Below are positions 10,015 to 46,281 of a stretch of 64,000 nt of DNA, one piece after another. Each line of letters begins with the position of its first letter. The stretch's first letter is position 1. Origin of the DNA: a phage; NCBI GenBank assembly GCA_017864995.1, contig GCA_017864995.1_4097.1, one strand, 5' to 3'. The notes below the pieces were generated by a model that was not told the DNA's origin, did no database searches, and saw only the letters and a list, made by a program, of their open reading frames with translations. The translations under genes were made by a program, and so were the position numbers.

Positions 10015-10141
<127 letters not shown>

Positions 10142-10148
10142 CCAAAAT

Positions 10149-10249
<101 letters not shown>

Positions 10250-10251
10250 CC

Positions 10252-10412
<161 letters not shown>

Positions 10413-10416
<4 letters not shown>

Positions 10417-10573
10417 CACATGAAGAATGGATGAATGACATTAATTTTAGATATTCGGGTATCGGTAAATGGCTAAAGTATCATTGGGAATTCATTTCAG
10501 AGCCACATCTGTATGATAAACTTATCAACGATCCAGCATATGAAATGTACTTAATTGAACTACTGGTACGAAC

Positions 10574-10577
<4 letters not shown>
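10413..10577 (+). CDS. hypothetical small protein, MTHEEW family (copy 2)
   Basis: 54 aa ORF; ATGA overlap with copy 1; tandem duplicate. Confidence 0.5.
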
Positions 10578-10745
<168 letters not shown>

Positions 10746-10746
10746 G

Positions 10747-11200
<454 letters not shown>

Positions 11201-11228
11201 GTATCTTAATAACAGAAGGTATATTGAA

Positions 11229-11468
11229 ATGAGTAAGTATTTTGTGAGTTATAGTTATAATGTATCACAAAAGGTTCCACGTGGTGATGGAATGGGCTGG
11301 TCATATGATACATATACTTTAAATGAGTCATGTATCATCGAATTGCAAGAAAAAGACCTTGACATTTTAAAAATCAAACAATATATTCTTGATGTTGAAT
11401 TGGCACATCGTACCGACAACTGTCCAGATGTAAACAACGTCAACATCTTAGTACTAACCAAAGTATAA
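11229..11468 (+). CDS. hypothetical protein
   Basis: Track ORF 11199 trimmed to ATG 11229 with GAAGG SD. Confidence 0.55.
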   Translation: MSKYFVSYSYNVSQKVPRGDGMGWSYDTYTLNESCIIELQEKDLDILKIKQYILDVELAHRTDNCPDVNNVNILVLTKV

Positions 11469-11474
11469 GATAAA

Positions 11475-11508
<34 letters not shown>

Positions 11509-11514
11509 GAATTC

Positions 11515-11860
11515 CACAATCAGACGTATATGGTGTAAGTTACGTCGATGTAATCCAGAACAAGATCTCTGGTACTCTAGGAAGTGGTGAATGTTAACCT
11601 AGACGGGTTTGATAATTGGACGATAGGCAATTATTACTTGACTAGCAGGTTTAAACTAGAGGTGACAGTCCTTTACCAAACTGGAAAACCGGATGGACTT
11701 TTATTTAAAAGGGTAAGGCGTGGAAATATGTTTACAGTAGTTGCTTTTAGTAGCCTGTACGCCCCACGTCAAGGTAGCCGAAAGGCAAGTTAAAACGGGT
11801 GGTTATAAAGCTGAATTAACAGCGGCGTTTAAAAGCGTCACCATCCATTTTTTTAATTAA
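11515..11860 (+). ncRNA. candidate structured non-coding RNA (function unknown)
   Basis: About 350 nt driven by promoter at 11480, visibly higher GC than flanks, no convincing ORF (only a GTG-start 69 aa ORF of odd composition), multiple stems; lies in the tRNA region. Confidence 0.3.
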
Positions 11861-11870
11861 AGTTGGTGAT

Positions 11871-12690
<820 letters not shown>

Positions 12691-12703
12691 ATAGGAAATT
12701 AAA

Positions 12704-12889
12704 GTGCAACTTTTAATTCTTTCAATATTGTATATTATTATAATGGTTCCGATATCAATACGTTTAATTACACTTGAACGATTTTTATCGAAACATGGAA
12801 ATAGATCTATGATCTTTGTACCAATCGGGTTGATATTGTTTGGTATATTTTCATTTATAATGGGAATTAACGCTACATTCATTTCATAG
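12704..12889 (+). CDS. small hydrophobic membrane protein
   Basis: 61 aa ORF with GTG start; two hydrophobic segments. Confidence 0.4.
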   Translation: MQLLILSILYIIIMVPISIRLITLERFLSKHGNRSMIFVPIGLILFGIFSFIMGINATFIS

Positions 12890-12898
12890 GAAACAAAT

Positions 12899-13566
<668 letters not shown>

Positions 13567-13585
13567 AGAGGTACTTCGAGTATGC

Positions 13586-13916
<331 letters not shown>

Positions 13917-13967
13917 GCCTCCCCTCAATGCGAAAGAGTATGGAGACTTGTTGGTTATCTTACTTCT

Positions 13968-14050
<83 letters not shown>

Positions 14051-14053
14051 TCA

Positions 14054-14126
<73 letters not shown>

Positions 14127-14143
14127 CAAAATAAAGGTACACT

Positions 14144-19133: not shown

Positions 19134-20291
19134 TTATGCGTTATAACCAACAATGACTACAGTACAGCCAAATGGTTCAACAACTTTTAATACAACATTA
19201 TCATCGGCATCTAGTTCAACTTCACTTAGTACAACGTGATTGTCTTCAGCATAGACTTGAACTTGTGGGAGGATTTTACCATGTTCACTGGCAGGAATGG
19301 ACAGTGTGTACATAGAATCACCATCATCTACCCAATCACTATCAGTATACGTGTTGTGATATGGAGTGGTGTGTAAGGTTTTACCAATAATACTCAATGA
19401 GATTGGAGCATCATCAGTTTGGTACACAGTAATATTACCGCTAGGATCTACAATGAGGTCTACTCCAATTTGGAATAAATCACCACTGTATGCTTGTAGA
19501 GCAAGATACTCACCACGCTCATGCACAGTAGCTGGTACAGTTGCCATGTACATACCATCGGACGTGTACTCAAACTGAGATAGAAGTACTGAAGTAACGA
19601 AGTCAATATCTTCGCCGCTTTCTAGTATATCAAATTCAATAGTTTTGGTATTATATATGTCAGAAGTGAGTATGATGGTTCCTTTACCGGATTGAGTAAT
19701 TGGATCAACTGGAATACTAAAAACATCATCAATTATTTCAGTAGTGAAGTACTCGGTTCCGTCAGGAAGTATAACGGTAATACGCATTCCAGTTGTATCA
19801 ATGGCTGAACCTGCGTTGAATAGGCGACCACCTACCAAATCATCACCTACGAACGTTGGGAACATAAGGATGTTGTCTATATCTCTATCTATAATCCCGC
19901 ATTCAGGGGTGTACATATTATATAGTGTTTGTGAACTACCTAGAATTGTTTTGTGCAAAAGAAACTTATAAACAAACCCAGTAGGATCTGATTCAAGTTT
20001 AGCATCTGAGTATCCTCTTACGAAAAAAGAGTTCTTTCTTATTTCACTTAGGATTTGGTCATTAGTTTTGTTGTAGTTTAATTGATATCCTTGTATATCC
20101 TTTGTTGTAATTTGTACTTTACGATAAATTACATTACTTACAGGATCAAGTAAATCATATAATCTATGGCTTCTCTGACGATAGATTCGAACATTTTTGA
20201 GTTTAGTCCCATCGTTGAGAATTGCACCATCGACTACATATCCACATTCACCGAACTTATATTGTCCAGCAGCAGCAATCGATCTTGACAT
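19134..20291 (-). CDS. hypothetical protein (385 aa; possibly virion-associated)
   Basis: Only long minus-strand ORF in the first 51 kb; SD GGAGGG upstream; TATAAT/ATAAATA-rich upstream region. Confidence 0.7.
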   Translation of the reverse strand: MSRSIAAAGQYKFGECGYVVDGAILNDGTKLKNVRIYRQRSHRLYDLLDPVSNVIYRKVQITTKDIQGYQLNYNKTNDQILSEIRKNSFFVRGYSDAKLESDPTGFVYKFLLHKTILGSSQTLYNMYTPECGIIDRDIDNILMFPTFVGDDLVGGRLFNAGSAIDTTGMRITVILPDGTEYFTTEIIDDVFSIPVDPITQSGKGTIILTSDIYNTKTIEFDILESGEDIDFVTSVLLSQFEYTSDGMYMATVPATVHERGEYLALQAYSGDLFQIGVDLIVDPSGNITVYQTDDAPISLSIIGKTLHTTPYHNTYTDSDWVDDGDSMYTLSIPASEHGKILPQVQVYAEDNHVVLSEVELDADDNVVLKVVEPFGCTVVIVGYNA

Positions 20292-20351
20292 TCATCCCTC
20301 CATTGGTATAATTATTATAACGTATTTATTCTAGATAGGTAAAAAAGCACC

Positions 20352-26038: not shown

Positions 26039-26065
26039 GGGTTGACTTCGGTCAACCCTTTTTTT
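26039..26065 (+). terminator. rho-independent terminator (PeSL-type hairpin without -10 box)
   Basis: gggttgac-TTCG-gtcaaccc followed by TTTTTTT; same hairpin as the terminator-promoter cassettes downstream. Confidence 0.7.
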
Positions 26066-37163: not shown

Positions 37164-37607
37164 ATGGGTTGGATTAACGTTAATAGCATTGAGCTAAATG
37201 AGCAAGACATATTTGCCTTTGTTAATTTGGTAGAGAACATTGCTATTAAAGGTCGTCTGTTTAGTTCATCGGACGGTAAAAAATGGATCTCTCTTATGAA
37301 CGACAATGGCGAGATTTATGACGTTATGCAACTACCTCATTGGGCTTATAAGAATACATCTGATGATGTGATGGCTGCTGTTATGCGTGAGTTTGAGAAG
37401 CTGCCAGGTGGTGATATTAAGAACATCGTATTCAATGCAGAACGCATGAACTACACACCAGAGCAGCTTCAACAGTTGGCAATTGCTGCCTATCAAGCTG
37501 CCATTAAGAAACCTGAATGTGTGATATTAAAGTACACACCGAACTTGAAGTTAACACTAGAAGATATGGATTCCTTTATCTTCAGTTCAGAACTTAAACA
37601 GTACTGA
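37164..37607 (+). CDS. hypothetical protein
   Basis: 147 aa ORF; SD GGAG upstream. Confidence 0.65.
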   Translation: MGWINVNSIELNEQDIFAFVNLVENIAIKGRLFSSSDGKKWISLMNDNGEIYDVMQLPHWAYKNTSDDVMAAVMREFEKLPGGDIKNIVFNAERMNYTPEQLQQLAIAAYQAAIKKPECVILKYTPNLKLTLEDMDSFIFSSELKQY

Positions 37608-37614
37608 TTTGACT

Positions 37615-37644
37615 TTGGAACAACCATTTCATATGTGATATAAT
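37615..37644 (+). promoter_or_regulatory. possible promoter (weak -35, TATAAT -10)
   Basis: gatataat at about 37637 with TTGACT/TTGGAA upstream at non-ideal spacing. Confidence 0.3.
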
Positions 37645-37718
37645 CTTAAGTGTCTGTTGAAATAAACAGCACATGAAGTATAAATATTAAAGTAATTTAT
37701 CTCTTTAAGGAGTATGAA

Positions 37719-38102
37719 ATGGTTGATAAATGGAATAAGAAAGATCCATCGCATGATGTGGATATTTCTGGAATTGATAATGCACATAAGCATAAGTATC
37801 TTGATTCACTAGGTCTACTAAAGCCTGACCAAAGTCTTGCACATGATCGTCCTTCACGTGAAAAAGCTTTCAGTCTAGAATCACTAGGCCATGAATTGAA
37901 TCGTGTATTTGAAGATCATCCAATTTATGTACGTGATATCATTGAGAAACTTAAAGTGACTCCTAAAGAGCACTTCAAGGCAACAGTACACGCAGCATTC
38001 CGTGCACTACATGAAGCACTAAAGAAAACTCATAACCTTCGCAAGATTCATGATGACATCGTGAACTCTATTGAAGGCGAAAAACATAAGTTTAAAAAAT
38101 AA
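37719..38102 (+). CDS. hypothetical basic protein
   Basis: 127 aa ORF; shares Y-x-[DN]-SLGLL motif with the 503-aa protein at 38950. Confidence 0.6.
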   Translation: MVDKWNKKDPSHDVDISGIDNAHKHKYLDSLGLLKPDQSLAHDRPSREKAFSLESLGHELNRVFEDHPIYVRDIIEKLKVTPKEHFKATVHAAFRALHEALKKTHNLRKIHDDIVNSIEGEKHKFKK

Positions 38103-38108
38103 TTAAAA

Positions 38109-38142
38109 GGGGTTGACTTCAGTCAGCCCTTTGTCGTATAAT
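38109..38142 (+). promoter_or_regulatory. terminator-promoter cassette (PeSL-like)
   Basis: gggttgac-ttca-gtcagccc hairpin; TTGACT at 38113, TATAAT at 38137 (18-nt spacer). Confidence 0.65.
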
Positions 38143-38189
38143 ATTTTCATCAAGTGATACAAAATACAAACAACGTGAGGTATTAAATT

Positions 38190-38303
38190 ATGCAAGGTAC
38201 TAAATTCATCATCGCTGCCCTAATCGCTGCTGTTGTAGTGGGTACAGTATGTTATTCAATTGACACCTATATCAATACACCTAGTGTTGAACAAACCAAA
38301 TAA
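38190..38303 (+). CDS. hypothetical small membrane protein (37 aa)
   Basis: Not in track; MQGTKFIIAALIAAVVVGTVCY; SD GAGG upstream; weak. Confidence 0.35.
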   Translation: MQGTKFIIAALIAAVVVGTVCYSIDTYINTPSVEQTK

Positions 38304-38311
38304 GGGATATC

Positions 38312-38575
38312 ATGGCTGAAACATTATCACTATATGCGTTAGTACTGTTATTTGTCGGATTTCTTCCTGCACTCATTACAGCCATTCGTGTTGTTAAACA
38401 TGAAGCTGCATTGATTGTATGTAGTATTGGGTCGAACATTCTATTGTATTTCTTTTTGACAAATACTATTGTACTGTTTGCTTTCTTTATCATGATTCTG
38501 TGGGTACTTGTAATTCTCGGATTCTTCATTTGGTCATTGGTTGATCCTAAGAAAAAAACAGGAGAAGTGAAATGA
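38312..38575 (+). CDS. polytopic membrane protein
   Basis: 87 aa ORF with 3 hydrophobic segments. Confidence 0.55.
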   Translation: MAETLSLYALVLLFVGFLPALITAIRVVKHEAALIVCSIGSNILLYFFLTNTIVLFAFFIMILWVLVILGFFIWSLVDPKKKTGEVK

Positions 38576-38868
38576 AATTAATTATAGCAATGATGATGTG
38601 TTTGGCTTTCCCTGTACTGGCTACTCCTAATCTGGACTGCACACTGTTGCGTTCAGATGGTGACACACTTGAAATCAACACATATGAACTCTTTGGTCCA
38701 AGTGTAGTGGAGAATGAAACCACCTACAATTTCAAAGCTATTGACTTTGAAGGTAATGTTCCAGTACTAACTACAATGACTATTGACAAAACTACTTTAC
38801 TCGGACGAATCACCACACAACGTGGAGAAAGTAAAACATTCACAGCGAAAGCTGACTGTAACTACTAA
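38572..38868 (+). CDS. small secreted protein (Cys-containing family)
   Basis: 98 aa ORF; N-terminal signal-peptide-like MKLIIAMMMCLAFPVLATP. Confidence 0.6.
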   Translation: MKLIIAMMMCLAFPVLATPNLDCTLLRSDGDTLEINTYELFGPSVVENETTYNFKAIDFEGNVPVLTTMTIDKTTLLGRITTQRGESKTFTAKADCNY

Positions 38869-38890
38869 TGGTATAGTACAGTGAAAATAG

Positions 38891-38921
38891 GGTTGACTTC
38901 GGTCAACCTTTTCTTTATACT
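38891..38921 (+). promoter_or_regulatory. terminator-promoter cassette (PeSL-like)
   Basis: ggttgac-TTCG-gtcaacc hairpin with T-run; TTGACT at 38893, TATACT 17 nt downstream. Confidence 0.65.
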
Positions 38922-38949
38922 ATAAATATAGTCATAGAGAATAAACAAT

Positions 38950-40461
38950 ATGAAATCTATGGAGAGAAATCAAATGCCAGGTCAATTTACTGATAAAAAT
39001 GGCGGGAACATGGCAGGTCACTCTGATAAATGGAGTGAACGCAATCGTCGTCAAAATAGCTACCAAGCAGGACAGGGGTCACGTGGTTCACGTAATCAAG
39101 GGACAGGTTTAGCTGGTAAGGCAAACGCAGAAGCAGGTGAAGTTAAGAGTACTGAGAACATGACTGAGCTAGAAAAGCTACGTTATGTTAACTCATTAGG
39201 TCTTCTTAACGCAACACAGAAACAACGCCTTGCTGATATGGAACGTGCTGAGAAAGAACAAGCAGTTCCTAAAGAAGAACCAAAACCAGAAGCTCCTAAA
39301 GCAGCTAACCCTGTTAAAGAGTTATCTGATAACTTAGGTAAGATCTTTGCTAACAAACCACAGTTGATTCAGGGTATTGTCAAAGCACTACAGGCAGTTC
39401 CTAAAGAAGAACTCAAAGGTAAAGCACAAGCTGTACTTGATGCAATGAAAGGTAATAAGAGCACTGAACCCACTGAAGTATTCAGTACTATCATGCGTGC
39501 ACTTGAAGGTACACACAAAGAAGATTCCAAAGAACCTGAACAGGGTGAAGCAAGTCTTGATGGTATTCTTAAAACTTTTGATAGTATTGGTAAAGCAGAC
39601 CGTGCTAATGCCCAGCAAGTCAAGAATGTACTGGCTAAACTTGAAAACCGTTTAGAAGGTAAAGACGATAAGGTTAAGCTCGTATCAGATGCAGTTAACA
39701 GTGCACTTAAATCTTATGTACAAGGTGAGAAAAGTCGCTTCGTAACAGCTATGGATGCTGCATTCAACACTATGAAAAAGTATGAAGCAGAACATGGTGA
39801 GAAGGTAACACCAGATGGTTATCTACTACGTAAAGATGAAGAAGGTGCAGTTGAACAGAAAGATGTTGAGCCTGAGCAAGAAGATCTACCTGATACCGTT
39901 GATATGGATGGATACATTCATCGTCCTGAGATGGAAGAGTTTGGGTCAGATAAAGAAGGTTTTGAACATGCAATGGCAGTATATAAAGCATTAGTTAAAA
40001 ATCCAGATTATGCTAACCGTTTTGTTGACGAGTTTGATAGTGCATGGAATAACTACAAAGAGAAAGGTTATGACTTCCCTGCTGAAGCTGCATTCTTTGA
40101 ACTTGGTAAACTATTAGCTAAACATGGAATTGACGTTGGTTCATCTGATTCTGACGGTATGGAAGAAGAACATCTTGAAATGACTGATAAATCAATTCAT
40201 GAACTTCAAAAGTTAATGATGTGGATATCCGAGATTGGTAAAAAAGCAGGTGCTGATAGTAAAAGTATCAACAAAAATATTAGTTGGATTAAAGATAATG
40301 TTGGTAACAATGCTCGTAAACTTCAAAAGGCTTGGGCTGATTTAGTAAATGGTGCAGATGATGTTGACATTGAATCACCAGAAGCATATGAGTATGCACT
40401 AACTACACTTGATAACTCATTCAAAGAGTACGACCGTGGTGTTGGAAAGGATAAAAAATAA
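38950..40461 (+). CDS. hypothetical charged protein (503 aa)
   Basis: Long K/E/A-rich ORF flanked by cassettes; contains LRYVNSLGLL motif shared with 37719. Confidence 0.75.
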   Translation: MKSMERNQMPGQFTDKNGGNMAGHSDKWSERNRRQNSYQAGQGSRGSRNQGTGLAGKANAEAGEVKSTENMTELEKLRYVNSLGLLNATQKQRLADMERAEKEQAVPKEEPKPEAPKAANPVKELSDNLGKIFANKPQLIQGIVKALQAVPKEELKGKAQAVLDAMKGNKSTEPTEVFSTIMRALEGTHKEDSKEPEQGEASLDGILKTFDSIGKADRANAQQVKNVLAKLENRLEGKDDKVKLVSDAVNSALKSYVQGEKSRFVTAMDAAFNTMKKYEAEHGEKVTPDGYLLRKDEEGAVEQKDVEPEQEDLPDTVDMDGYIHRPEMEEFGSDKEGFEHAMAVYKALVKNPDYANRFVDEFDSAWNNYKEKGYDFPAEAAFFELGKLLAKHGIDVGSSDSDGMEEEHLEMTDKSIHELQKLMMWISEIGKKAGADSKSINKNISWIKDNVGNNARKLQKAWADLVNGADDVDIESPEAYEYALTTLDNSFKEYDRGVGKDKK

Positions 40462-40470
40462 ACATTTAAA

Positions 40471-40503
40471 AGGTTGACTTCGGTCAACCTTTTTTTGTAA
40501 ATA
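40471..40503 (+). promoter_or_regulatory. terminator-promoter cassette (PeSL-like, weak -10)
   Basis: aggttgac-TTCG-gtcaacct hairpin with TTTTTTT; -10-like TAAATA. Confidence 0.55.
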
Positions 40504-40532
40504 TTGTAGAGGGTTTTATAAGAGGTAATGCA

Positions 40533-40784
40533 ATGTTTAAATATGTTTTATTTTCACTTGTATTGTTTACTGATATAGTTTATAGTACTGAATACCAGTG
40601 CTCCATTGCTAGACAGGAGTTTAGAAACGGTGAGTTCTATACCAAGTCTTACACTAGAGGATTGGTACATGACAATAATAAAACTATAGGGTTCAATGCA
40701 TTTGATAACAAAGATCGATATACGTCTGGAATACTATCTGAACGTAAGTCGGATATACTAGGTATCGAGCGTGAATTCCGGTGA
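40533..40784 (+). CDS. small secreted protein (Cys-containing family)
   Basis: 83 aa ORF; signal-peptide-like N-terminus. Confidence 0.55.
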   Translation: MFKYVLFSLVLFTDIVYSTEYQCSIARQEFRNGEFYTKSYTRGLVHDNNKTIGFNAFDNKDRYTSGILSERKSDILGIEREFR

Positions 40785-45369: not shown

Positions 45370-45783
45370 ATGAAGAAGTGTATCACGTGTAATATTGAAA
45401 AAGACATTAGTGAATTTGGTATAAGAAGTGATACTGGGAAACATAGAAATACATGCAAAGGTTGTAGTAATATTACCAGTAAGAGAACCAGAAATAAAAA
45501 AACTGATGTAAAAACACTTGAAGAAATCAAAAGAAAAAATAAAGATTTCATGACCAGAGTTAAATCATTTTATGGTTGTAGTGTTTGTATGATGAAGTAT
45601 CCAGAATGTTTAGACTTTCACCATCTTGACCCTAATACCAAAGAACATACACCAAGTTCTATGTTCAGTAAAAGTCGAGATGCTATCAAAGATGAAATTC
45701 GAAAGTGTATGATTCTTTGTTCTAATCACCATCGCATGGTACATTCTGGTAGACTATGTTTGATTGAAAGAAAAAAGGGTTGA
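45370..45783 (+). CDS. HNH endonuclease (freestanding, homing-endonuclease-like)
   Basis: CITC...CKGC...LDFHHLDPNTKEH...CMILCSNHHRMVH fits HNH with zinc-binding cysteines; stop codon TGA lies inside the TTGACT of the downstream cassette. Confidence 0.65.
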   Translation: MKKCITCNIEKDISEFGIRSDTGKHRNTCKGCSNITSKRTRNKKTDVKTLEEIKRKNKDFMTRVKSFYGCSVCMMKYPECLDFHHLDPNTKEHTPSSMFSKSRDAIKDEIRKCMILCSNHHRMVHSGRLCLIERKKG

Positions 45784-45837: not shown

Positions 45838-46281
45838 ATGACACGCATTAACTTAGTACACGTTAAAGAACTTGCTGACCAACATCTGATGGCTGAATAT
45901 CGTGAACTCCCACGTGTGTTTGGTGCTGTACAAAAACATGTTCAAGCACGTAAGCGAGTCCGTGATTTCAAAATTAACAGTACTTACCTGTTAGGTTCAG
46001 GTCATGTAACATTCTTCTACAACAAGTTATTGTACTTACAGAAGCGTCATATTGATATTGTTAACGAATGTTTGCGTCGTGGGATGAAGATTCAAAACAC
46101 TGAAGTAAACGACATTAGCGGATTCCCTACTGAGTTTTGTAATGACTACGTACCATCGGAGTCAGAGATTAAAATGTCTCGTGAGCGTTTGATTGAGAAG
46201 CTACAGATGAAGCCTACGTGGTATAAGTTTACTGATGTTGAGTTACCTGAGTATTATCGTTCTATGATAGTGTATTACTAA
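45838..46281 (+). CDS. denV: pyrimidine dimer DNA glycosylase / endonuclease V
   Basis: N-terminus [35 protein letters not shown]...VRDFKI...GHVTFFY...PTWYK matches my memory of T4 endonuclease V nearly residue for residue over the first ~60 aa. Confidence 0.85.

Follow-up and report, generated by a model that had tools for sequence, protein, structure and literature searches.

What are two charged proteins, encoded a short distance apart in a jumbo phage genome and sharing a Y-x-[DN]-SLGLL motif, and what could this motif be for? The window analyzed here is a stretch of 64,000 nucleotides (NCBI GenBank assembly GCA_017864995.1, contig GCA_017864995.1_4097.1). It belongs to an Asteriusvirus jumbo coliphage of the 121Q/PBECO4/phAPEC6 group and is 99.6% identical to BF17. 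The original prediction, made from the letters of the DNA, was that both proteins could be injected or packaged in the capsid.

The two genes and their expression signals

ORF A (37719..38102, +) encodes a basic virion protein of 127 amino acids (pI 9.05) that is the orthologue of 121Q gp199, phAPEC6 gp037c, and JP4_541. ORF B (38974..40461, +) encodes a virion protein of 495 amino acids (pI 5.13), acidic overall with a basic N-terminus, whose orthologues are 121Q gp201, phAPEC6 gp035c, JP4_543, and RaK2 ORF275. The high charge of both proteins was confirmed, with K, R, D, and E accounting for 45 of the 127 residues of A and 163 of the 495 residues of B. Both ORFs were found where they had been placed at first, but the 503-aa version of B, the longest ORF, which begins at ATG 38950, is probably not the real one. 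The true start is almost certainly ATG 38974 (MPGQF..., 495 aa), because a GGAG (38961-38964) lies 9 nt upstream of it while ATG 38950 has no Shine-Dalgarno sequence, because homologues begin with MP(G/S)xF, and because 121Q gp201 and fEgEco12 g555 have an annotated length of 1488 nt. Between A and B, the BF17-like phage carries two additional small membrane-protein genes that are missing from 121Q.

Judging from the surrounding DNA, each gene appears to form its own transcription unit, in which TATAAATA and a Shine-Dalgarno sequence precede the ORF and a hairpin terminator follows it. The TATAAATA element, which is the consensus of T4-type late promoters (dependent on gp55 and gp33), lies at 37679..37686 (+), 33 nt before the ATG of A, and at 38921..38928 (+), 45 nt before ATG 38974. 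The putative Shine-Dalgarno sequence of A is AAGGAG (37707-37712), and that of B is the GGAG mentioned above. Predicted stem-loop terminators were located directly after A (38111..38128, +; GGTTGACTTCAGTCAGCC followed by T's) and a little upstream of the B promoter (38891..38908, +; GGTTGACTTCGGTCAACC followed by a T-run), where the latter would insulate B from upstream transcription. The same element as at 38891..38908 recurs directly after B (40472..40489, +). Only two copies of TATAAATA were present in the 64 kb, compared to 11.9 expected, and each is directly upstream of A or B; [AT]ATAAATA was seen 5 times, compared to 23.8 expected. The TATAAATA element also precedes both genes in phAPEC6 (50 kb) and 121Q. 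Neither A nor B has a significant RNA fold in its 5' region in the window (z = -1.6 and -1.7).

We considered whether TATAAATA is a general promoter of virion genes and rejected this, as other MS-verified virion genes do not have a perfect copy. The RCC1-repeat genes and the gp077 homologue carry TAAATA-N3-TATAAT instead. Homologues from Mimasvirus and Eneladusvirus are preceded by a near-consensus sigma-70 promoter (TTGACA-N18-TATAAT) in place of TATAAATA; the CBB, BF, GAP32, XbC2, and Yen9-04 homologues have such a promoter. Because of these, exclusively late expression is not established for the family as a whole. T4-related jumbo phages encode sigma factors, gp33, and a gp21-type prohead protease (PMC7824862).

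A paralogous family with a conserved N-terminal module

The motif common to both proteins is K-x-[KR]-Y-x-[DN]-S-L-G-L-L. In A it reads K24-H-K-Y-L-D-S-L-G-L-L34 (37788..37820, +), with residues 26-38 being KYLDSLGLLKPDQ and Y27-L34 corresponding to nt 37797-37820. In B it reads K68-L-R-Y-V-N-S-L-G-L-L78 in the 495-aa numbering (39175..39207, +) and is contained in LRYVNSLGLLNATQ, with YVNSLGLL at nt 39184-39207. Its supposed location near the N-terminus holds for A (residue 27); in B it occupies residues 71-78 of 495. The pattern Y-x-[DNQ]-x-L-G-[LIVM]-[LIVM] was confined to ORFs A and B in the six-frame translation of the window, with no additional motif-bearing ORF in any of the six frames. 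The likeness reaches far past the motif, as A23-120 aligned with B75-187 in BLASTP (40 bits, E=5e-9). In a profile search, PHROG 16530 matched A at 7.7e-55 and B at 2e-40, and PHROG 20398 (phrog_20398) matched B at 2.7e-245; the category of both is 'head and packaging: virion structural protein'. A Pfam scan of A and B returned sub-threshold noise only (Tau95, Inhibitor_I34, DUF6507). The 171-aa homologue P0081 is intermediate, combining a complete N-terminus with an A-like remainder. ORFs A and B are paralogues. The sharing of the motif, as first noticed, is thus not a chance match, because the motif is the invariant core of the family to which both belong.

A profile search among 1.84 billion proteins retrieved 33 clusters, and the profile recovered both A and B. 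All 33 matches in the representative library and the 71 matches in phage records came from RaK2-like jumbo phages or uncultured contigs. The family was found in all sampled RaK2-like genera, including RaK2, K64-1, and GAP32, and its members include CBB_38, GAP32_032, and BF_0027. It is narrow, confined to RaK2-like (T4-related) jumbo phages. When the consensus N-terminal module was searched by tblastn (E<=10), one or two family copies were found per genome, and three places in CBB, a phage with a long terminal repeat. Homologues that occur as a single copy are small, basic proteins (pI 8.75-9.57). Across Asteriusvirus, A is 95-100% identical. B is 97% identical to 121Q gp201, while the phAPEC6/JP4 form has 417 aa and is ~74% identical over ~90% of B.

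AlphaFold2 predicted a beads-on-a-string layout with a disordered N-terminus, a short motif helix, a linker, and helical bundles (pTM 0.29). In B, residues 1-60 (38974..39153, +) are predicted to be disordered and follow the pattern MPGQFTDKNGG..GHSDKWS..NRR..AGQGSRGSRNQGTG..GKAN. The predicted motif helix spans residues 65-74, with LGLL at the turn. The helical domain characteristic of the family comprises residues 111-180 (39304..39513, +; NPVKELSDNLGKIF...VFSTIMRALEG). It is followed by an acidic, lineage-variable C-terminal extension (39514..40458, +) with three more helical bundles (residues 195-274, 320-383, and 405-490), which is missing from A and from the 153-177-aa single-copy homologues. 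ORF A is a short paralogue that differs in its N-terminal module by the loss of the Gly/Arg-rich segment (only the NRR...GKAN stretch is missing). Its motif forms a short isolated helix (residues 21-30) and then the LGLL turn, and its predicted four-helix domain (residues 53-126; 37875..38096, +; pLDDT ~80-87) is homologous to B 111-180. The family proteins are all-alpha, in which they differ from typical tail, baseplate, or fibre proteins.

Foldseek with the AlphaFold2 model of B found nothing below E=1 in the PDB, and in BFVD it found family members only, followed by insignificant tape-measure-like helical matches. In profile searches of PDB sequences, the only matches were to designed helical repeats and ferritin (E>=7e-4) and reflect composition. 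BLASTP detected no internal repeats of the helical domain in the C-terminal extension of B (E<=100). The metagenomic homologue P0082 carries a tandem copy of this domain.

Conservation is concentrated at the N-terminus. In the N-terminal module of ~80 residues, a basic stretch that is rich in Gly/Ser/Arg/Asn/Gln and predicted to be disordered precedes one short amphipathic helix; the module is better conserved than the folded four-helix domain behind it. Among 37 family members compared column by column, W20, K68, and Y71 were invariant and L75, G76, and L77 were 92-97% conserved, giving the segment consensus K-x-[KR]-Y-[FVL]-x-[SAK]-L-G-L-[LM]. The run AGQGSRGSRNQGTG was nearly invariant as well, while the columns of the helical domain had an entropy of 2-3 bits. 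The alignments contained, in order, DKW, (D)TSKM, K-x-[KR]-Y-x-x-x-L-G-L, a linker, and the helical domain, which has conserved F and L/K positions. Most short homologues (155-260 aa) were about 55-80% identical to B in the N-terminus and 16-56% identical in the helical domain; their C-terminal region, where present, was ~20% identical to B. The RaK2-type N-terminal variants were only 37-47% identical to the N-terminus of B. The motif itself, the best-conserved element of the family, was kept in essentially all homologues; a lack of such conservation would have counted against the original prediction.

The module is joined to at least four C-terminal architectures, which include the standard helical domain, tandem helical domains (P0082), long acidic extensions, and short '...NRPVRR...' tails (P0116, P0117, P0122, and P0123). 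A recombinant combination of N- and C-terminal parts was seen in P0008, which is 37% identical in the N-terminus and 95-99% identical elsewhere. Some members have no helical domain and comprise just the N-terminal module with the motif (P0116, P0117, and P0119), and P0120 and P0121 start exactly at the motif, which argues for an autonomous role of the motif.

Occurrence in virions and comparison with known phage proteins

Published virion proteomics of related phages bore out the expectation that such proteins are carried in particles. In purified phAPEC6 virions, mass spectrometry detected the A orthologue gp037c with 5 peptides (48% coverage) and the B orthologue gp035c with 8 peptides (28.8%) (PMC7247149, Table 1). 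In JP4 virions, JP4_541 (A) was detected with 4 peptides (29%) and JP4_543 (B) with 2 peptides (5%) (PMC12648861, supplement 2). The single-copy homologue CBB_38 was found in CBB virions with 9 peptides (56.6%) (PMC5259590, Table 4). All three are published whole-virion proteomes of orthologues or homologues, with tables at the protein level. Such tables are compatible with either loss or retention of the N-terminus; YLDSLGLLKPDQSLAHDRPSR is a tryptic peptide within the N-terminus of A. The label 'virion structural protein' is given to family members in the GenBank and RefSeq records of 121Q, fEgEco12, RaK2, GAP32, BF, and Yen9-04. The orthologues of A and B are components of purified virions, and A and B are already annotated, MS-verified virion proteins of Asteriusvirus that were re-found here. 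The phAPEC6 virion list also holds a RecA-like protein, SSB, thymidylate synthase, and topoisomerase (PMC7247149). Because it includes such clearly non-structural proteins, detection by mass spectrometry does not by itself prove a structural role.

The virion proteins of 121Q, phAPEC6, JP4, CBB, GAP32, BF, and RaK2 are direct orthologues or homologues that have the module and motif in common and differ in nothing essential. A more distant likeness is to the T4 internal proteins IPI, IPII, and IPIII (and Alt), which are likewise small virion proteins, often basic, with genes that lie outside the main structural block. As with T4 proteins that carry a capsid targeting sequence (CTS), a conserved N-terminal element is combined with variable bodies in a phage that has gp20, gp21, and gp23 homologues. 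PHROG and Pfam searches revealed no similarity to IPI, IPII, IPIII, or Alt and matched RaK2-like families only. A CTS of ~10 residues ending in L/I-x-E was not present in the MVDKWNKKDP... and MPGQFTDKNG... N-termini, and no L/I-x-E was conserved in the first 80 residues. Unlike the 10-residue T4 CTS, the conserved element here has ~80 residues with an internal helix and is limited to one family. If A and B do lie inside the head, the family would be functionally analogous, not homologous, to the T4 internal proteins with a CTS.

In T4, ipII and ipIII lie near denV, and a corresponding synteny had been proposed for A and B. The genes do lie upstream of denV (45838-46281), but the arrangement is loose, with 5.4 kb and ~14 small ORFs between the gene pair and denV, in a phage that is an Asteriusvirus and not T4. 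Nor is it conserved in other genera, as the 4 kb around the homologue in RaK2, CBB, and BF contain no annotated denV.

Like the phiKZ inner-body and head proteins, A and B are virion proteins of a jumbo phage that occur as paralogues. Unlike the inner-body families of phiKZ and 201phi2-1, they gave no PHROG, Pfam, or fold match to these and have no conserved S/A/G-x-E site. The authors of the phAPEC6 study likewise report no homology to phiKZ-like inner-body proteins (PMC7247149). An inner-body role for the family is something that we purely infer. The GenBank label 'chromosome segregation protein' of phAPEC6 gp035c originates from a weak match (E=0.039, record note), and both gp035c and SMC proteins are long, charged, and alpha-helical. 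We found this label unsupported: Pfam detected no SMC, SbcC, or ABC-ATPase domain, there was no PDB or fold match, and AlphaFold2 predicted short helical bundles only.

Possible roles of the N-terminal module

The pattern described above looks like the signature of a docking signal, because conservation is highest in a segment with predicted disorder, which has been recombined with different C-terminal domains. Our leading reading, to which we give slightly less than an even chance, is that A and B are late-expressed virion proteins whose N-terminal module serves for docking or incorporation, probably inside the head. The module would fold as it binds some conserved component of the particle under assembly, and the motif helix would supply its hydrophobic contact; candidate partners are the core or scaffold of the prohead, the inner surface of the capsid, the portal, and DNA. 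Once docked, it would take the helical C-terminal domains, which are variable, along into the virion, most likely to the head interior, where they may act as internal, inner-body, or ejected proteins. ORF A would then be a trimmed copy that kept DKW and K..Y...LGLL and lost the Gly/Arg-rich stretch. The overall acidity of B, unlike the classic basic internal proteins, counts against this reading. In contrast to the T4 CTS, the module is not a general tag for capsid targeting, because it is absent from unrelated virion proteins and the family has one or two copies per genome. Literature searches for a cryo-EM assignment or functional study of the A/B family found none.

Alternatively, A and B could be external or tail-associated accessories, with the module docking to the exterior of the capsid or to the sheath. 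They might be anchors or parts of the hair-like fibres on the capsids and tails of 121Q, phAPEC6, and CBB, or decoration or cement proteins. Whole-virion mass spectrometry is blind to location, and a conserved, 'disordered', extended N-terminal arm is how many cement and decoration proteins bind capsids. In phAPEC6, fibre-anchoring and decoration densities have no assigned protein (PMC7247149, figure legends). This placement is nevertheless unlikely. The family occurs in every RaK2-like genus sampled, whereas the CBB authors consider that the whiskers may be an extra specific to CBB and perhaps missing from GAP32 (PMC5259590). Furthermore, the proteins are all-alpha, lack any fibre-like or beta-rich domain, and match no known decoration or fibre fold, and their C-terminal parts are highly variable or absent.

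We consider it rather more doubtful that A and B are abundant binders of nucleic acid or host factors that are co-purified or co-packaged with DNA, the motif being a linear motif for an intracellular partner. The company of the RecA-like protein, SSB, topoisomerase, and thymidylate synthase in the phAPEC6 list (PMC7247149), the RGG-like basic low-complexity N-terminus, and the sigma-70 promoters of the homologues listed above would fit such proteins. On the other hand, three independent virion proteomes, which represent two genera, include the family at high coverage (48% and 56.6% for the small forms), and TATAAATA precedes both genes in Asteriusvirus. SLGLL loosely resembles beta-clamp-binding peptides such as QLGLF. 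A clamp-binding function was dropped, as the register does not fit QL[SD]LF or QLxLxL and the key Q is missing.

Less probable still is that the motif marks a propeptide or cleavage region and that the module is removed by a T4 gp21-like prohead protease, in the manner of the T4 CTS or the propeptides of phiKZ head proteins. Packaged proteins that undergo protease processing are built in this way, with a conserved N-terminus followed by variable cargo, and the RaK2 major capsid protein is apparently processed. These phages encode a gp21-type prohead protease, which was detected in phAPEC6 virions as gp227c (PMC7247149; PMC7824862). However, alignment of the N-termini, which had been suggested as a way to recognize a processed targeting peptide, revealed no conserved site of the T4 type (L/I-x-E) or the phiKZ type (S/A/G-x-E) before or after the motif. 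The Glu that precedes K68 has a conservation of only 57% and is replaced by His in A, there is no conservation in the column aligned to the 'VKE' of B, and a T4-like 10-residue CTS is missing.

Finally, the motif could have no separate function and be the slowest-evolving remnant of the gene duplication, for example a folding or oligomerization helix, given that paralogy fully explains its sharing by the two ORFs and that the motif helix of B is confidently predicted (pLDDT 86-91); this is very improbable, as A and the short homologues lack the helix that follows the motif in B although the motif is invariant in them, and as the motif helix of A stands isolated between disordered stretches (pLDDT ~50-57).

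The paralogy of two annotated virion proteins is ordinary, and the remaining value of the locus lies in the conservation pattern. The TATAAATA element is a testable candidate late-promoter element for this phage group. If the docking reading holds, the module would offer a handle on the loading of internal proteins in RaK2-like jumbo phages, and possibly on the inner body that was seen by bubblegram imaging in the heads of the closely related phAPEC6 (PMC7247149). A bolder version, which we regard as possible but doubtful, is that the ~80-residue module, with its conserved Gly/Arg-rich disordered stretch and K-x-K-Y-F-x-S-L-G-L-L helix, is a new type of virion-incorporation signal in RaK2-like jumbo phages that loads interchangeable cargo domains into the head as inner-body components or ejected proteins. 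If this is true, the module could be used to package foreign proteins into the very large capsids of jumbo phages, just as the T4 CTS has been.

ORFs A and B encode paralogous virion proteins

A megablast search with positions 37600-40600 as the query assigned the window to an Asteriusvirus jumbo coliphage. Phage BF17 was 99.6% identical to the window, followed by WPEC3, WPEC5, vB_Ec-M-J, fEgEco12, Turkey3, and Ecwhy_1 (99.1%–99.5%), while 121Q and PBECO4 were 92%–93% identical across 75% of the query. The relatives of this phage are 'RaK2-like' myoviruses of ~350–385 kb that are distant kin of T4. The T4 framework of the original prediction thus holds as an analogy only, the phage being an Asteriusvirus and not T4.

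ORF A (37719-38102, plus strand; N-terminus MVDKW...) encodes a 127-residue protein that contains ...HKHKYLDSLGLLKPDQ..., and the longest ORF of B (38950-40461, 503 aa) contains ...EKLRYVNSLGLLNATQ.... Both ORFs were confirmed where they had been placed, and both products are highly charged, with about one-third charged residues in each (pI 9.05 for A and 5.13 for B). For B, ATG 38974 (MPGQF...; 495 aa) is the most likely start codon, rather than ATG 38950 (MKSMERNQ...), because GGAG is located 9 nt upstream of the former and is lacking at the latter, the homologues have N-termini of the form MP(G/S)xF, and the annotated length of both 121Q gp201 and fEgEco12 g555 is 1488 nt. The longer form is present in some database entries, e.g., the 503-aa cluster P0001.

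The motif Y-x-[DN]-SLGLL, which the two proteins had been proposed to share, proved genuine; both carry it within K-x-[KR]-Y-x-[DN]-S-L-G-L-L. When all six frames of the window were translated, Y-x-[DNQ]-x-L-G-[LIVM]-[LIVM] was confined to ORFs A and B, and the similarity extended far past the motif. Residues 23-120 of A aligned with residues 75-187 of B in BLASTP (E=5e-9), and PHROG 16530, a 168-position profile named 'virion structural protein', matched both, at 7.7e-55 for A and at 2e-40 for B (residues 9-188). On the basis of these matches, A and B are paralogues with a ~170-residue module in common. They are linked by P0081, a metagenomic homologue of 171 aa that consists of the full N-terminus of B followed by an A-like remainder. 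This intermediate architecture indicates that A originated through deletion of NRR...GQGSRGSRNQGTG...GKAN.

Orthologues of both proteins were detected by mass spectrometry (MS) in purified virions, and the motif is conserved in the homologues, which bears out the prediction of virion proteins. In phAPEC6, gp037c (to which A is 95% identical) was detected with 5 peptides and 48.0% coverage, and gp035c, the orthologue of B, with 8 peptides and 28.8% coverage (PMC7247149 Table 1). In JP4, the A orthologue JP4_541 was detected with 4 peptides (6 PSMs, 29% coverage) and the B orthologue JP4_543 with 2 peptides (5% coverage) (PMC12648861 supplement 2). The single-copy CBB_38 (172 aa) was detected with 9 peptides and 56.6% coverage (PMC5259590 Table 4). 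These data were obtained from whole virions and do not distinguish head from tail. The phAPEC6 list also holds evident non-structural proteins, such as RecA-like, SSB, and thymidylate synthase (PMC7247149), so MS detection should be read with caution. The depositors of 121Q named gp199 and gp201 'structural protein', and RefSeq names the RaK2, GAP32, BF, and Yen9-04 homologues 'virion structural protein'; for RaK2 ORF275, the text of the RaK2 paper did not confirm MS support.

Homologues of ORF A were found by tblastn in 56 phage records and those of ORF B in 69, and the consensus N-terminal module was found in 71, at one or two places per genome; CBB, which has a long terminal repeat, carries it at three places. 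In every record found, the host of the family was a RaK2-like jumbo phage. The family occurs as the A plus B pair in Asteriusvirus, as a 565-aa form in Alcyoneusvirus (RaK2, K64-1), and as a single basic protein of 153–173 aa (pI 8.75–9.4) in Mimasvirus (GAP32, CBB, XbC2) and Eneladusvirus (BF, fHe-Yen9-04, and the pEa_SNUABM phages); it is also present in the 7t3/Munch/SE_PL group. When the family profile was run with HMMER against 1.84 billion representative proteins, just 33 clusters were returned at E<=1e-3, and no Pfam model exists for the family. A and B are shown to be paralogues within a narrow family of jumbo-phage virion proteins, with support from MS.

The argument that the two genes lie upstream of denV, as internal protein genes do in T4, is weak. 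The denV gene (45838-46281, 147 aa) is clearly T4 endonuclease V-like, but it is located 5.4 kb and ~14 ORFs downstream of ORF B, behind an HNH endonuclease gene, and no denV annotation was found within 4 kb of the family homologue in RaK2, CBB, or BF. The HNH-endonuclease-like ORF directly upstream of denV (45370-45783, 137 aa) is Cys-rich with an HH...H motif; such an endonuclease is annotated at the matching position in fEgEco12 and not in 121Q. A and B are separated by three small ORFs (38191-38304, 38312-38575, and 38572-38868). Two of them are hydrophobic and membrane-like, and the N-terminus of one (98 aa) resembles a signal peptide. Since 121Q and phAPEC6 carry only the first (gp200 and gp036c), the other two are a lineage-specific insertion. 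The annotated features of one relative across this 3-kb region include 'immunity to superinfection' and 'membrane protein'. In Mimasvirus and Eneladusvirus, a gene for an SPFH/Band-7 protein is located 2–3 kb upstream of the family gene (CBB_29, L005:602-1477; BF_0022, L006:1662-2519; Yen9-04 g012, L009:1-663). The CBB protein was MS-detected in the virion with 8 peptides, which makes it an unusual virion component.

Conservation and predicted structure of the N-terminal module

In the family alignments, the motif forms the invariant core of an N-terminal module that is itself conserved. Among 37 diverse members, the motif's K and Y were invariant, as was the W of DKW, the L, G, and L of LGL were 92%–97% conserved, and the consensus read (D)TSKM-x-P-E-E-K-L-[KR]-Y-F-[NQK]-S-L-G-L-[LM]. 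The whole ~80-residue N-terminal stretch is the best-conserved part of the protein. Its run A-G-Q-G-S-R-G-S-R-N-Q-G-T-G-x-x-G-K-A-N-T was nearly invariant (entropy of 0–0.6 bits), and the columns of the helical domain had mostly 2–3 bits. Most short homologues (155–260 aa) were 55%–78% identical to B over residues 1-60, 16%–56% in the helical domain, and about 20%, i.e., unrelated, in the C-terminal region where present.

The module is joined to different downstream parts. P0008 (phage TH47) is a mosaic whose RaK2-type N-terminus is 37% identical to B and whose helical and C-terminal part is 95%–99% identical; for the TH47 type as a whole (P0008/P0010), the N-terminal 60 residues are RaK2-type and the remainder is 86%–99% identical to B of the window. 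B of the phAPEC6/JP4 type (417 aa) keeps the N-terminus and has a shorter or different C-terminal part. Such mosaicism among the Asteriusvirus relatives indicates recombination within the ORF B gene, as judged from sequence comparison. In the metagenomic P0082 (256 aa), the four-helix domain is duplicated in tandem behind one N-terminal module. In P0116, P0117, P0122, and P0123, the module is followed by short tails containing NRPVRR, whereas P0119 and P0124 end just past the motif, and P0120 and P0121 start at it.

AlphaFold2, run with the family alignments, predicted B as an all-alpha, beads-on-a-string protein (mean pLDDT 76, pTM 0.29). Residues 1-60 were of low confidence and disordered, residues 65-74 formed the motif helix (pLDDT 86–91) with LGLL in the turn at its C-terminal end, residues 98-110 formed a disordered PEAK-rich linker, and residues 113-178 the family helical domain, followed by three further helical bundles (195-274, 320-383, and 405-490). 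In A, the motif was predicted as an isolated helix (residues 21-30, pLDDT about 50–57) with disordered segments on either side, and residues 53-126 as a four-helix domain (pLDDT 80–87). Foldseek with the model of B as the query gave no fold match in the PDB, where the best E was 1.1; its matches in BFVD were confined to the family, and the sequence-profile search of the PDB gave compositional matches only. The name 'chromosome segregation protein' (SMC/SbcC) of phAPEC6 gp035c (L004:2277-3530) is unsupported; it stems from a match with E=0.039, and Pfam, PDB, and fold searches found no ATPase or SMC domain.

Transcription signals of the two genes

Judged by its flanking signals, each of the two genes is a self-contained unit. 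The 64-kb window contains exactly two copies of the octamer TATAAATA, which is the T4 late-promoter consensus, compared to 11.9 +/- 3.4 expected; they lie at 37679-37686 (33 nt upstream of the A ATG) and at 38921-38928 (45 nt upstream of ATG 38974 of B). Its exclusive placement before the A and B orthologues is repeated in the first 50 kb of phAPEC6 and in 121Q. The relaxed octamer [AT]ATAAATA occurs 5 times compared to 23.8 expected; the remaining three copies, at 12083-12090, 13896-13903, and 20323-20330(-), are located upstream of tRNA-Ser (12274), tRNA-Thr (13974), and the homologue of the phAPEC6 virion protein gene gp077. The T4 late-promoter octamer is thus strongly avoided in this genome and is a candidate late-promoter element of Asteriusvirus. 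A T4-like late promoter at A and B is plausible, since T4-related jumbo phages are reported to have sigma factors and a gp33 orthologue, along with a gp21-type prohead protease (PMC7824862). Because an extended -10-like element, TG-a-TATAAT, is located at 37636-37644, about 75 nt upstream of A, unmodified host RNA polymerase may transcribe this gene as well. Six tRNA genes are clustered at 10055-14127 (Ser-tga, Ser-gct, Met-cat, Asn-gtt, and two adjacent Thr-tgt).

A GC-rich hairpin, GGTTGACTTCGGTCAACC, followed by T's, is located after A (38111-38128) and after B (40472-40489), and a further copy (38891-38908) would insulate B against upstream transcription. With 0–2 mismatches, 8 copies were found compared to 0 expected, all on the plus strand and 18 nt each (starting at 26040, 34517, 38111, 38891, 40472, 41154, 45778, and 47846). 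This hairpin is apparently a stereotyped intrinsic terminator, reused among small transcription units.

Two observations qualify the assignment of TATAAATA. First, other MS-verified virion genes have a different but related element, TAAATA-N3-TATAAT, which occurs 6 times in the window compared to 0.23 expected, always upstream of minus-strand genes. One copy, 20314-20328(-), precedes ORF 19134-20291, and five lie in an array of ~250–460-aa ORFs at 57–64 kb: 58227-58241(-), 59449-59463(-), 60712-60726(-), 61942-61956(-), and 63193-63207(-). The same element precedes phAPEC6 gp077 and the RCC1-repeat genes (gp001, 005, 006, 007, and 010), most of which encode MS-verified virion proteins; the window ORFs behind it are possible orthologues. 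It may be a second type of virion-gene promoter. Second, the family gene of Mimasvirus and Eneladusvirus lies behind a near-consensus sigma-70 promoter, TTGACA-N18-TATAAT (L005:3948-3993 in CBB and L006:3952-3995 in BF; also GAP32, XbC2, and Yen9-04). This promoter is set in a hairpin, AATCCCCTAA...TTAGGGGATT, that is both strong (-24 and -20.6 kcal/mol; z = -5.0 and -3.8) and conserved, with the -10 box inside and the Shine-Dalgarno sequence AGGGGA in the 3' arm. The layout resembles a T4 arrangement in which the ribosome-binding site is masked in read-through transcripts and only transcripts initiated inside the hairpin are translated.

Location in the particle and role of the module

For the A/B family, a location inside the head is the most likely one, by a modest margin over even chances. 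This is suggested by the small, basic, all-alpha ancestral form, by the position of the genes outside the main structural block, and by the inner body of ~91 x 18 nm that bubblegrams reveal in phAPEC6 heads and that has no assigned proteins; phAPEC6 proteins bear no resemblance to those of the phiKZ inner body (PMC7247149).

The N-terminal module probably serves as a docking or incorporation element: despite its predicted disorder, it is better conserved than any other region of the protein, it has just one amphipathic helix, and it has been recombined with various C-terminal domains. During particle assembly, it would fold upon a conserved putative partner and bring variable cargo into the particle. 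The proteins would then be functional but non-homologous counterparts of the CTS-bearing internal proteins of T4. In contrast to the CTS, the module is family-specific and not common to unrelated cargo, and the family alignments contained neither a T4-like CTS nor a conserved L/I-x-E or S/A/G-x-E site. The overall acidic character of B also counts against full equivalence.

A and B are an ordinary pair of virion-protein paralogues that were annotated already. What is new is modest: the N-terminal module common to both is strongly conserved and probably binds a partner, and the window has only two TATAAATA octamers, one before each gene. That the module is a novel type of virion-incorporation signal in jumbo phages is rather unlikely, and this is the one reading that would make the A/B pair more interesting.
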